Source: Octopus vulgaris
Taxonomy: Eukaryota
DNA: 64,000 bases
Reading direction: 5' to 3'
NCBI GenBank assembly: GCA_951406725.2
Contig: OX597818.1
Location: 72,664,001 to 72,728,000, forward strand
The first letter of the stretch is position 1. Each line of letters opens with the position of its first letter. This document shows, piece by piece, positions 30,951-64,000 of this stretch. Under the pieces are notes generated by a model. The model saw only the letters and a list, made by a program, of their open reading frames with translations, made no database searches and was not told where the DNA came from. Made by a program: the position numbers and the translations under genes.

Positions 30951-31256
30951 CACTTATATATATATATATATATTTCAACAATTGAGGGTAAAATTAATTA
31001 ATTATTAATCAATTTCACCAAGTATTCAGTATGTAAAGGGACCATTTAAGGCGAATTCAAAATATTACATTTTATAAAGGGCTTAGTAAAATAAATTACT
31101 TTGCCACATACTGAACTCATTAGAAATAGCAGCCAAAAAAATTTTTTAGCCGAATTCTAATACTTAAAGAAAATTTCTCTCAGATAGTGCTTACTCAGAA
31201 TAGCCCACGAAGGTATGGGGGTAAAAACATTAAAAAAATCACAAATGCAAAGGTTA

Positions 31257-31318
31257 TTTGAGAACGTACGTTTCTAGATCAGCCAAATACAATTCGACAT
31301 TTCTTTCGTCAGCCCAAA
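31257..31318 (-). ncRNA. Type I hammerhead ribozyme (array unit)
   Basis: TTTGGG-CTGACGA-stem II-GAAA-CGTACG-TT/CTCAAA. Confidence 0.75.
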
Positions 31319-32633
31319 ATTCCTTAATTCGGATTTGCAAACACTGAAAGTAGGAGCATACCCTTTTGGCGAATTTTCACCTCAGAAGATCCGCTCAGAC
31401 TATCAGTGCCAACAAATTCAAAATATGTAAGCGAAGAATTTCTGCCCTCCCCTTTCCACCCACGTGGTCTAATCTAGCAAACACCATAATTTTATCGGTG
31501 AAAACCGAAGCATTAAACAGAGAGAAATGAATTATAATTTCAACAATTGAGGGTAAAATTAATTAATTATTATCAATTTCACCAAGTATTCAGTATGTAA
31601 AGGGACCATTTAAGGCGAATTCAAAATATTACATTTTATAAAGGGCTTAGTAAAATAAATTACTTTGCCACATACTTTGTATTTGGCTGATCTAGAAACG
31701 TACGTTCTCAAATAACCTTTGCATTTGTGATTTTTTTAATGTTTTTACCCCCATACCTTCGTGGGCTGTTCTGAGTAAGCACTATCTGAGAGAAATTTTC
31801 TGTAAGTATTAGAATTCGGCTAAAAAACTTTTTTGGGCTGCTATTTCTAATGAGTTCAGTATGTGGCAAAGTAATTTATTTTACTAAGCCCTTTATAAAA
31901 TGTAATATTTTGAATTCGCCTTAAATGGTCCCTTTACATACTGAATACTTGGTGAAATTGATTAATAATTAATTAATTTTACCCTCAATTGTTGAAATTA
32001 TAATTCATTTCTCTCTGTTTAATGCTTCGGTTTTCACCGATAAAATTATGGTGTTTGCTAGATTAGACCACGTGGGTGGAAAGGGGAGGGCAGAAATTCT
32101 TCGCTTGCATATTTTGAATTTGTTGGCACTGATAGTCTGAGCGGATCTTCTGAGGTGAAAATTCGCCAAAAGGGTATGCTCCATACCTGAGTAAGCACTA
32201 TCTGAGAGAAATTTTCTTTAAGTATTAGAATTCGGCTAAAAAAATTTTTTGGGGCTGCTATTTCTAATGAGTTCAGTATGTGGCAAAGTAATTTATTTTA
32301 CTAAGCCCTTTATAAAATGTAATATTTTGAATTCGCCTTAAATGGTCCCTTTACATACTGAATACTTGATGAAATTGATTAATAATTAATTAATTTTACC
32401 CTCAATTGTTGAAATTATAATTCATTTCTCTCTGTTTAATGCTTCGGTTTTCACCGATAAAATTATGGTGTTTGCTAGATTAGACCACGTGGGTGGAAAG
32501 GGGAGGGCAGAAATTCTTCGCTTGCATATTTTGAATTTGTTGGCACTGATAGTCTGAGCGGATCTTCTGAGGTGAAAATTCGCCAAAAGGGTATGCTCCT
32601 ACTTTCAGTGTTTGCAAATCCGAATTAAGGAAT

Positions 32634-32695
32634 TTTGGGCTGACGAAAGAAGTGTCGAATTGTATTTGGCTGATCTAGAAACGTACGTTCTCAAA
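32634..32695 (+). ncRNA. Type I hammerhead ribozyme (array unit)
   Basis: Stem I TTTGGG/CTCAAA, core CTGACGA, stem II AGA..GTCGAAT/ATTTGGC..TCT, GAAA, palindromic stem III ACGTACGT, GUU site. Confidence 0.75.
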
Positions 32696-33200
32696 TAACC
32701 TTTGCATTTGTGATTTTTTTAATGTTTTTACCCCCATACCTTCGTGGGCTATTCTGAGTAAGCACTATCTGAGAGAAATTTTCTTTAAGTATTAGAATTC
32801 GGCTAAAAAAATTTTTTTGGGCTGCTATTTCTAATGAGTTCAGTATGTGGCAAAGTAATTTATTTTACTAAGCCCTTTATAAAATGTAATATTTTGAATT
32901 CGCCTTAAATGGTCCCTTTACATACTGAATACTTGATGAAATTGATTAATAATTAATTAATTTTACCCTCAATTGTTGAAATTATAATTCATTTCTCTCT
33001 GTTTAATGCTTCGGTTTTCACCGATAAAATTATGGTGTTTGCTAGATTAGACCACGTGGGTGGAAAGGGGAGGGCAGAAATTCTTCGCTTGCATATTTTG
33101 AATTTGTTGGCACTGATAGTCTGAGCGGATCTTCTGAGGTGAAAATTCGCCAAAAGGGTATGCTCCTACTTTCAGTGTTTGCAAATACGAATTAAGGAAT

Positions 33201-60377: not shown

Positions 60378-60635
60378 ACTGTTGTGTTCTTGAGCAAGAC
60401 ACTTTATATCACGTTGCTCCAGTTTACTCAGCTGTAGAAATGAGTTGCGACGTCACAGGTGCCAAACTGTATCGGCCTTTTCCTTTCCCTTGGATAACAC
60501 TGGTGGCGTGGAGAGGGGAGGCCGGTATGCATGGGCGACTGCTTGTCTTCCACAAACAACATGGCCCGGACTTGTGCCTAGGAGGTTGACTTTCTAGGTG
60601 CACTCCCACTGTAAGTCATGACCGAAGGGGGTCAC
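60378..60635 (+). mobile_element. 5'-truncated SINE sharing a body domain with family C
   Basis: GTTGTGTTCTTGAGCAAGACACTTTATATCACGTTGCTCCAGTTTACTCAGCTG..AAATGAGT, followed by a different tail. Confidence 0.65.
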
Positions 60636-60939
60636 AACATTATTTTGTCCTTATAGGAAAGATAGTATATTTTCTAATGACCTTCCATCGTTAACGAATC
60701 GAAAAAAGGAGTGTAAATAAATATATAAATATTTTATAAACACTCTTACCTATCTTACATATTTGCGTTATACACACACACACACACACACACACAACAC
60801 ACACACACATATATATATATCAATATACCCAGAAGTACATGTTTGCACACACACATACACACATATATATACGCTCGCGCGCGAGCACACACACATATAT
60901 TTAGGAAAAATTCCAAACTCTCTATCAGCTAGATAGTGC

Positions 60940-61370
60940 TAAAATGCCGCAACAAAGATACTTTGGAAAAAAAGGAGCGTCAATCCGAGAGTCAAGTACT
61001 ATGCGTGATGTTGAGATTGATATGAACAACAATGCCTCATTTCACAGAAATATCCCCGAGATGCTGGCTGTGTGCAGGCAAATGGCCGGATGTATCTTTC
61101 AGATCTTTAAGAATAAGGGACCAGTAAACTATGTTGATTCTAGGATATTTGTCGTCCGCTGTCCAGATTGATAGTCTCAACTGTAATCACCACAAAGTGT
61201 CAAATTAATACCGGAACTTGAGTAAGTTCAGGCGTGATACTCTCGGGAAAACTGCATCGACAACCTGAAGTCCAAGGTCCCAGATGAACCTACAGAACGG
61301 CAAAAAACTGAAAAGTGAGATGTCGATCTCCCTCTTCAAAAGAATATGTATACTTAAAGAAGCATACAAG
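60940..61370 (+). pseudogene. CR1-group LINE post-RT fragment
   Basis: RDVEIDMNNNASF..RQMAGCIFQIF.., followed by SQL.SP..ELE.VQ-like remnants. Confidence 0.6.
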
Positions 61371-63376
61371 TACATAAAGACGTACAAACACGCATGCATA
61401 TTAAATATATATATGTTTTTTCAACTAAATCACAATAAGAAAATATATATATGTATATATATATGTATATATATATGTAATATATAGCAATCTATATTCG
61501 GTGGGTATATATATATATATATATATATATATATATATATATATATATATACTGCCTATATATATATATATATATATATATATATATATATATATATATA
61601 TATATATATACGCCATTTTCGCATGAATATTATACGTTTTCAACATACTCCATTATAATTTTTAGCAAATATTTTATCAGAACTAGAAACTGACAGAATT
61701 ACATGCTGCTATTTCTGTAGCAGAATGAACTTAGAGACGAAATAACCCAACTATAATCTGGATTGGTAGGAGAGAATAACAGTGTGGTCATGAGATGGCA
61801 ATATAGCTACAAAGTTTATTTATCTCCTTATCACCATCAAAAGATCTAATGCAGCTAGTATACTACGTCCACTAAGAGTTAAAACCACTGGGAATTGACA
61901 GTTAAGTTCTATCTGCTGATAAATTCATTAATGTCAGATACTCTCCTAAACCCCTAATTTACTATGGCCATAAATTCCCTATGATCACATAAAGAAACAA
62001 ATCCCAGAAGTCAGTAAGATAATGGAAAATGCCCAGAAAAGGGAGGGTGGGGTGACATATTATCAGTTAAAGTGGTCTAAAATAGAAAACAAAGGACATC
62101 ACAATGAGATCTAAATGGACATTAAGTGTACGGGGCAATGAATGACAAAATTAATATAGTGTTATTCAATTTTGTATAATAGAAACTAAATTTTTAAACA
62201 TTTAGAAAGGGATATGAGGACCAGATTAGATATGAAGGATATATAAAAAGGATATATAAACCAGTTTAAGCCCTAAAAAAGTAGATTACATTTATATAAA
62301 ATAGAAGCTTCATAATACTTCATCCTAGCGAACTTTAAGCTGGTCATGTTGAAACCATTTAAGCAATGAGCCCAGATTCCATTCAGAATTCATCCGAGAA
62401 AGAGGTAGACATTATCTATTGACTGAAAATCAAGGATCAAAGATGAAAAAATGAGATCATTGTTTCTATGCCAGATAAAATTATTTAAAAAATATGATTG
62501 TATAAAAATTCCAGCATTTAAGAAATATCCTAAAGGATGTAAGGATATAAGGAAATATAAAAAAATATGGCCTATGTATATATATATATATATATATATA
62601 TATATATATATATATATCTCATTCTAGCACACGATCTCAGATCAAGTCACTCGCTATGCAAGTACATCTCCGTAATATATATATACGCAAAAATATCATA
62701 TATGTATATATGTATATATGAAGAATATATTATAATTACAAAATGTAATTATAAATAACTAAAAAATATACATGTAACTACCATACTGTATTATATCTTA
62801 CCTTGCTTAACTGCAGAGAAACGTTACAACCCCTCTGCAAATCATAGAATGTTACAGTATATACGATTTTAAATAGGTATACAAAATGCAAAATTCAATA
62901 ATATAATATACGGTGATTACACCGTTTTTCCTTCAATTCCAAGATTTCCGCCCTATCAGTCAGAATAGGTATAACTAGGATGTGATATCAGATAGCACGC
63001 CTCCGTCAGGAATGCTCAATACCCACTAGGAACAATATAATTCTACATACAACTATGCTTGCGATACTATATTTTATAAAACCACATCCAATAGTATTCT
63101 CATCTTACTTTATTTCTTAATTTACTTTGTTTGGTAAACCGCGACCTATTCTTATTATTATTTTATTTTATTATTTTCTTTTTTTAATTTTTTCTTACTA
63201 TTCTTATTTCTATTTTTGTCTTTTTTCTCTCCTTATATCCAGTGTGCTTCTTATGGCTTCGACAGTGAAAAGAGTTTTTGACCTTATATTCATTATTTAT
63301 GTCTGTTTTATCATTTCATAAATGCCTTATATACACACACACACACACACATATATATGTATACATACATATATAT

Positions 63377-64000
63377 ATAGGCCATTCGACTCACTAAAAC
63401 GAGCAGCCAAACTCAAACCGCTAAATAGTAGTAATTCAGAAATCAAAGGAAAATTAAAAACATTTACCCTTATCATCTTTGGACTATGCATAGTTTCGAC
63501 GTACATTTTGGCAAACCAGCTTAATTAAATTAAATTTAATTTAATTAAATCAATTTACCACTGGCCCGTCTCATCGGCAAAGAAGCCAGGGGGAATATAT
63601 ATTCCACGAGGCAACAGCATCGATGCCGTTTTAATTTTAATTTTAGGCCATTTTAATTTTCCTTTGATTTCTGAATTACTACTATTTAGCGGTTTGAGTT
63701 TGGCTGCTCGTTTTAGTGAGTCGAATGGCCTATCAAGGCCATTCCTTAATATTATTGTTGAATGTACATTATATAGTCTGTTGACTATTTTTTTTTCTCA
63801 CTAGACCGCTGGTGGCGAAAAAGTTTCTCTTGAATTTTTGCTACCCTGATATTGATTAATTAATGAATATTTGGCTAATTCTGAAATTAAATCAGCAGTT
63901 TATATTTGCTGCTGATAAGTTGGCGCGATGACGGTAGATTTTGAAAGTTTAGAGTATATATTCCCGAGGCATCGATGCTGTTGCCTCGTGGAATATATAT
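63377..64000. mobile_element. Inverted insertion of a circularly permuted hammerhead element of about 485 nt (reaches window edge)
   Basis: Interleaved inverted repeats 63377-63459/63651-63733 and 63595-63627/63968-64000; starts at (TA)n. Confidence 0.8.
63477..63582 (-). ncRNA. Type I hammerhead ribozyme (CCGA core variant, long stem II insert)
   Basis: CTTTG-CCGATGA-GACG..CGTC-GAAA-CTATGCATAG-TC/CAAAG; palindromic stem III ACTATGCATAGT, GUC site. Confidence 0.85.

Follow-up and report, generated by a model that had tools for sequence, protein, structure and literature searches.

A 64,000-nt stretch of Octopus vulgaris DNA (contig OX597818.1, positions 72,664,001-72,728,000, assembly GCA_951406725.2; hereafter the window) contains back-to-back insertions of Penelope-like retroelements, and of non-coding derivatives bearing hammerhead ribozymes, within TA repeats. 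The layout at these loci is the already-described anatomy of Penelope elements. Its best explanation is target priming from both ends of the break, with TA pairing as a helper and not a requirement, and we give that mechanism about an even chance of being correct. The window is AT-rich (33.5% GC) and contains many microsatellites.

Head-to-head layout of the insertions

The initial annotation had named seven places where the left part was read as minus-sense and the right part as plus-sense. Comparison of the window against itself with blastn located inverted arms at all seven: a coding copy (16570-18099) and the loci here called A (30971-33459), B (35711-36090), C (36957-37372), D (45151-45321), E (49057-49282) and F (63377-64000). 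Locus G (34320-34903), which had not been listed, is a probable additional head-to-head locus (arm match P=0.003). The sense of the arms was assigned independently of the annotation, by the open reading frame (ORF) in the coding copy and by hammerhead motifs at the non-coding loci. Since an nhmmer profile built on 18 of the 20 rows of an alignment (A2; two badly aligned rows were excluded) recovered short-stem motifs only, a structural scan was added, in which a complete type-I hammerhead was defined by the core, GAAAC, the cleavage triplet and a paired helix I. Seven complete hammerheads were found, in loci A, C, E and F (31312(-), 32640(+), 33207(+), 37190(-), 37253(+), 49194(+) and 63577(-)), versus one in the reversed-window control. 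The coding copy and loci B and G have degenerate hammerheads and locus D a half motif; those in B (35990-36046, minus strand), D (3' half, from 45191 onward, plus strand) and G were read by eye. No hammerhead appeared among the best 150 of 232 rows from Rfam, which held only sub-threshold matches to microRNA families, mostly in microsatellites.

With the sense assigned in this way, the minus-left and plus-right arrangement held at six of the seven named places (16570-18099, 30971-33459, the locus ending at 36090, 36957-37372, 45151-45321 and the locus starting at 63377) and is ambiguous at 49057-49282, where the sense can be read in two ways. The coding Penelope, oriented by its ORF, has the same inverted layout, as had been claimed. 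The left bound originally given for locus B (35945) proved not to be an end, and minus-sense sequence continues to 35918 or 35711.

One arm ends earlier than the other in each locus, leaving an extra 3' piece (tail) of ~55 nt in the coding copy, 90 nt in A, 56 or 263 nt in B, 114 nt in C, 70-85 nt in D, at least 227 nt in F and ~25 nt in G. An inverted 5' copy with a one-sided tail, and a pseudo-long terminal repeat (pLTR) with a type-I hammerhead, are both features that mark endonuclease-containing (EN+) Penelope-like elements, and both are present here; a list of Penelope-like element features for curators is given by Goubert 2022. Arkhipova 2013 (PMC3846280) describes an inverted pLTR, a head-to-head arrangement, junction palindromes and a one-sided tail, and the same layout is described in Craig 2021 (PMC8557442), where the cause of the inverted copy is called undefined. 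The window loci share with the canonical unit of these two descriptions the inverted, 5'-truncated head-to-head copy, the junction palindrome, the one-sided tail and the hammerhead in the pLTR. They differ from it in that the tails are mostly longer (about 55-115 nt, and >225 nt in F, versus the 30-40 nt described), that most units are non-coding, and that a mirrored host flank, as seen at locus C, was not found in the canonical description.

The coding copy consists of an inverted pLTR arm (16570-16722, minus strand), which is joined to a short TA tract and has a ~55-nt tail (about 16575-16627) without counterpart in the right arm, and of a 5'-truncated, broken Neptune-type Penelope ORF (16727-18099, plus strand), which begins at the reverse transcriptase (RT) motif WKRYLD and is interrupted by stops and frameshifts. 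As in other members of the group, an RT of the Penelope-like type is followed by a C-terminal GIY-YIG domain in one ORF. The domain lies at about 17515-17610 and its match was below the curated cut-off (E=0.00085). A CxxxxCxxC linker (KCKRPNCGTC), which conforms to the CX2-5CxxC pattern of Neptune, is found upstream of a LIYILTC..YVGQT motif. A degenerate hammerhead follows at about 17950-17990, and the short 3' end, TTTTCAACTATA, is joined to TA, all on the plus strand. The coding copy is 66% identical over 90% to a protein (P0001) that carries RVT_1 and GIY-YIG, and the named relatives of the closest protein are from one cephalopod and from bivalves. The sequence TTTT(C/T)AACTATA is common to the short 3' ends, or their vicinity, of distant Neptune-type elements (18088-18099 in the window, L015:3918-3930 and L029:4265-4277); L015 ends with CAACTATAT|, like the coding copy.

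TA repeats at the junctions

The 3' ends had also been proposed to be usually fused to (TA)n at internal TA-like motifs. The seven named loci have 14 ends in total, of which 13 are visible, the right end of F being beyond the window. Ten of the 13 are indeed fused to (TA)n, one is not (the left end of E, on a G-run), and two are ambiguous, namely the left end of B and the right end of D, where TA begins at 45322 after a 17-mer resembling a short interspersed nuclear element (SINE). Since (TA)≥4 tracts make up only 4.1% of the window, the association is far above chance for this set of loci, which the initial annotation had selected. The four junction motifs that had been quoted, TGTAATAT|ATA at the short end of A, AGTATATTA|TA in B, CTCGCTTATA|TA in C and GGCCTAT|ATA in F, are correct as read from the DNA. 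Any target-site duplication at these loci would be masked by the TA tracts.

TA overlap was scored at the eight junctions beyond which the template can be read from the longer arm or from a tandem unit. It amounted to 3 nt in the coding copy, 4 nt at the short and 2 nt at the long end of A, 2 nt in B, 4 nt in C, 2 nt in D, 3 nt in F and 0 nt in G, and the sum of 20 nt compares with 7.9 nt expected under a random-phase null (P=0.003).

A bias of this kind has precedents. Craig 2021 (PMC8557442) reports (TA)n bias in Naiads and links microsatellite bias to the CX2-5CxxC linker of Neptune, and in a Chlamydomonas mutation-accumulation study (PMC9977147) de novo insertions target microsatellites. 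An alignment of 26 of 120 listed relatives retrieved 72 host-DNA loci, on metagenome as well as genome contigs, and no relatives were found in viral contigs. Among the 47 loci with a match at or nearly at the C-terminus and at least 150 nt downstream, 14 have a TA tract at most 450 nt downstream of the ORF, several loci sharing samples or families; in the same, non-independent set the density of TA tracts was 0.97/kb within 450 nt downstream versus 0.12/kb further off. For two related families from other animal DNA, 6 of 12 3' ends (a copy truncated by the end of its contig was excluded) fall at template TA runs of at least 4 nt versus 2.3 expected (P=0.013), and three of the 12 (L049, L050 and L056) are clearly away from TA. 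An inverted repeat in L040 was not counted as an inverted arm, being located downstream of the ORF.

Formation of the inverted arms

In two-ended priming, the element protein would cut both strands, and each broken end would prime its own antisense copy of the RNA. The left arm, as read on the top strand, would then be cDNA primed from the left flank, and the right arm cDNA primed from the bottom strand of the right flank. The two copies would begin at two preferred internal sites in the RNA, which would give the short and the long ends, and 2-4 nt of UA pairing may help to set the register. Both cDNAs would stop early and be joined via a short palindrome, via ribozyme helix I or by filler synthesis, and the non-coding elements would use the protein in trans. 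Fold-back of a single cDNA was probably the origin of some loci, C most of all.

The coding copy argues for two separate priming events. Its tail is found on the left arm only, and nowhere else in the window, while its ORF is found on the right arm only; because fold-back gives nested arms only, two templating events are needed here. Since each arm holds sequence absent from the other, neither can be a fold-back copy of the other. F, as far as it lies in the window, also has non-nested arms, and G probably does. The locally repeated filler of F and the 8-of-9 hairpin at the centre of A (P=0.008, noticed post hoc) are as expected from the joining of two separate ends.

LINE-1 provides a parallel, in that twin priming there uses both target ends, inverts the 5' part and leaves microhomology at the inner junction, while the two arms come from non-overlapping parts of the RNA and form no palindrome. 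In the window, by contrast, the terminal or tandem repeats of the template make the arms overlap, and there is no poly(A). An explicit two-ended priming account of Penelope inversion was not found by title or abstract, subscription papers and supplements being outside the search, and the word 'twin' has no matches in PMC8557442 and PMC3846280.

Biochemical work on a related protein is in line with two-ended priming. According to Frangieh 2024 (PMC11167929), the purified Anolis Poseidon protein PAc cuts and extends both strands in vitro. Its reverse transcription starts from two fixed internal positions in the RNA, which mark the limits of the tail, and the protein is modelled as a dimer; no link between the extension of both strands and the inverted pLTR was found in the text. 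PAc and the window loci share the AT-rich target and, if two-ended priming is right, the extension of both strands and the two internal start sites. The two differ in that PAc is a Poseidon protein with AC-rich, non-homologous start sites, whereas the window elements are Neptune-type with 2-4 nt of TA homology.

The twin-priming-like account of the initial annotation, with both ends of a break in self-complementary (TA)n annealing to UA-rich sites in the RNA, can thus be kept in part. Its two-ended priming fits the non-nested arms and the both-strand extension in vitro, but the self-complementary (TA)n is not needed. Such a requirement was rejected on account of L067, which has an inverted arm and a tail between non-microsatellite flanks, and of Adineta Penelope-like copies, which are described as having inverted pLTRs with 8-10 bp target-site duplications (PMC3846280). 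Annealing to UA-rich sites agrees with the modest enrichment of TA microhomology but not with the in vitro RT starts, and because these RNA start sites are non-homologous to the target, TA pairing is regarded as a helper only.

Several observations weigh against two-ended priming or against its dependence on TA. Four hammerhead-type pieces (8400-8450, 35711-35917, 46684-46790 and 56070-56260) have no inverted arm, so that about 7-8 of the 12 pieces, and not all, have the layout. Locus E, with its left end on a G-run and not on TA, does not fit the layout. An inverted upstream arm was seen in two or three of the 72 related loci (L065, L067 and possibly L061), most of the 72 being collapsed tandem contigs without flanks. 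The microhomology is short (2-4 nt), is 0 at G and could have come later via slippage; when the best phase is allowed, its sum of 20 nt compares with 13.6 nt expected (P=0.06). The start sites of PAc are not homologous to the cut DNA (PMC11167929). The arms of B, C and D are nested, with zero-spacer centres in C and D, and are compatible with fold-back. Finally, the host flanks of locus C mirror each other (score 116, P=0.0007 versus random TA-flank pairs), which two-end priming does not predict.

These last points lead to the alternative that one end primes the cDNA, whose 3' end folds over at a short palindrome and is extended on its own strand; the new strand then uses TA microhomology to switch to the TA tract or to the far end. 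On this view a template switch, and not a priming site, would account for the short end. As the general explanation this is rather doubtful, but it accounts for the microhomology equally well, and locus C has the expected form: the arms are complementary at 151/151 positions around a zero-spacer CCTAGG centre, and the mirror resumes for 69 nt in host DNA after the 114-nt tail has been skipped at TATA. Locus D also has a zero-spacer centre, and the junction of B lies in helix I. However, fold-back alone cannot yield the non-nested arms of the coding copy or of G, and the variant pattern of locus A is unlike that of a straight copy, with both left-arm units carrying G at position 277 where the only unbroken right-arm path able to template them carries A twice.

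The flank mirror at C may, moreover, predate the insertion, being more diverged than the arms (3/69 versus 0/151 mismatches, Fisher P=0.03). Locus C thus arose either by fold-back at CCTAGG, with the tail jumped at TATA and synthesis continuing into the flank, or by landing in an older palindrome. The greater divergence of the flanks favours the older palindrome, and the rarity of mirrored-flank sites favours fold-back: mirrored flanks were absent from the six other loci (seven loci and eight pairings tested) and were found at one of 92 TA tracts scanned, that tract being locus E.

An earlier proposal (Arkhipova 2013, PMC3846280), based on inverted-junction palindromes such as those now seen at C, D and F, is that an antisense transcript primes itself and builds the head-to-head unit before integration, the finished unit being inserted at AT-rich DNA. 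We consider it improbable, as in the later biochemistry both strands are extended by target priming with a sense template, and as the TA microhomology at the outer ends is left unexplained. It is also quite unlikely that the layout formed at insertion and that the TA-like motifs are secondary, slippage or deletion between flanking (TA)n and internal TATA having trimmed the ends. The shortness of the microhomology, and the scatter of related-family ends over several internal TATA sites, would agree with such trimming; on the other hand, very young loci (arm identity about 99% in A and 100% in C and F) already carry TA-like junction motifs, and tails are also present in non-microsatellite insertions (L067; Adineta). 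An assembly or library fold-back artefact, which the perfect zero-spacer palindrome with mirrored flanks at C might suggest, is very improbable given that arms differ in tails and substitutions (A, D and the coding copy), that the flank mirror of C has three mismatches, and that the same layout is known from other animals and from the literature. Pure artefact and pure chance were both rejected as sources of the layout.

To return to two-ended priming, a wider model is offered tentatively, as a possibility short of probable: the inverted pLTR and tail may be the footprint of priming at two ends by a dimeric protein, short UA motifs in the pLTR of TA-targeting Neptune elements may act, for both ends, like the template-alignment region of telomerase, and a minority fold-back route may copy into host DNA and leave inverted flank duplications. 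Taken together, the non-nested arms, the TA bias measured here and the mirrored flank at C provide a clean test at the scale of the genome: whether arms are nested, how much microhomology short ends have and whether flanks are mirrored can distinguish two-end priming from fold-back in this genome with its many young copies. If two-ended priming with minority fold-back is true, Penelope-like elements would regularly generate palindromes in the host; if host flanks are duplicated by fold-back, microsatellite-rich genomes would gain palindromes and local rearrangements from these elements.

Anatomy of the non-coding loci and neighbouring sequences

The left arm of locus A (30971-31676, minus strand) spans 1.25 copies of a non-coding, 567-bp hammerhead monomer, and its long end lies on TA, at position 323 of the monomer. 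The right arm (31677-33459, plus strand) comprises about 3.1 units, with its short end at monomer position 233, and its hammerheads at 32640 and 33207 are two consecutive complete motifs 567 bp apart, a tandem arrangement characteristic of retrozymes. No long ORF was found in the locus except microsatellite read-through. The predicted cleavage triplet is GTT and the folding of the monomer has z=-5.6. The monomer is a high-copy family in one assembly (2512 matching contigs), in which the summed contig depth, a crude measure, is ~40-fold lower just past the long end, a drop that would agree with two-ended priming; in the raw-read runs X21, X22 and X23, one monomer with the left flank matched 0, 14 and 0 reads. 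An internal jump in the right arm (32182-32187) has a 4-nt insert matching another part of the monomer and two 2-nt microhomologies, and looks like a double template switch. Locus A resembles the animal non-LTR retrozymes of Li 2026 (bioRxiv 10.64898/2026.07.22.740005), where retrozymes are argued to be non-autonomous derivatives of Penelope-like elements, in being tandem and non-coding with a type-I hammerhead; unlike at locus A, inverted arms and TA targeting were not found in that description. Immediately to the left of the locus, a 300-bp element (30652-30949) forms an imperfect hairpin of 77% identity.

The left part of locus B (35711-36051, minus strand) is of the pLTR type with two degenerate hammerheads and, depending on whether its left end is at 35918 or 35711, possibly represents two elements. 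The right arm (36048-36090, plus strand) begins in hammerhead helix I (ACAG). In B (36040-36052) and in one reading of E (49187-49230), the inner junction falls within helix I, and the predicted cleavage site is the start of one arm. The exact 27-nt pattern of family B gave 0 matches in metagenome and viral contigs.

Locus C has a left arm (36957-37221, minus strand) that contains the hammerhead at 37190 and the 114-nt tail, and a right arm (37222-37372, plus strand) that meets it without a spacer (CCT|AGG). The left host flank (36885-36953) is mirrored in the right host flank (37394-37462), an inverted copy over 69 nt with 3 mismatches. In locus D a short arm on (TA)n (45151-45190, minus strand) meets the long arm (45191-45321, plus strand), which contains the 3' half hammerhead, at the centre TTTCA|TGAAA. 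The last 17 nt of the long arm (45305-45321), followed by TA, are a common SINE 3' end that also occurs at 11312, 46952, 1043 (-) and 25656 (-). A SINE body is absent from the other side of locus D, and the 17-mer may be either a 3' terminus shared by the SINE and the hammerhead element or a captured piece.

Locus E comprises a copy of ambiguous sense joined to the G-run (49057-49102), with a 44-nt perfect inverted copy of 49147-49190, and an imperfect hairpin that has TA at each end (49137-49282, plus strand), inside which the hammerhead lies at 49194-49229. The copy at 49057-49102 may be plus-sense, since the arm at 49145-49190 resembles post-ribozyme sequence and both end with CTTCGTAA|ATATAT. 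The left arm of locus F (63377-63627, minus strand), which carries the hammerhead at 63577 and the short end, has its inner end on a 10-nt palindrome. After 23 nt of locally repeated filler, the right arm (63651-64000, plus strand) enters the next monomer and leaves the window, whose last ATATATAT is internal sequence of the locus F monomer, found inverted at 63595-63627. Locus G has a probable short minus arm at about 34320-34360 and a plus arm that contains a hammerhead (34801-34846) and ends on TA.

Elsewhere in the window, the pieces at 8400-8450 and 46684-46790 are two copies of a hammerhead-bearing repeat that adjoins (TAA)n. The stretches at 8560-9900 (minus strand), 10150-10600, 40000-41250, 49430-50715 and 53757-54630 are named from motifs, and we take them to be a second broken Penelope-like ORF, mariner-like pieces and TAA-associated non-LTR fragments; the frame at 8892-9329 had no Pfam match. 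The region 26200-28700 is a patchwork of duplicated and inverted blocks with 79-100% identity.

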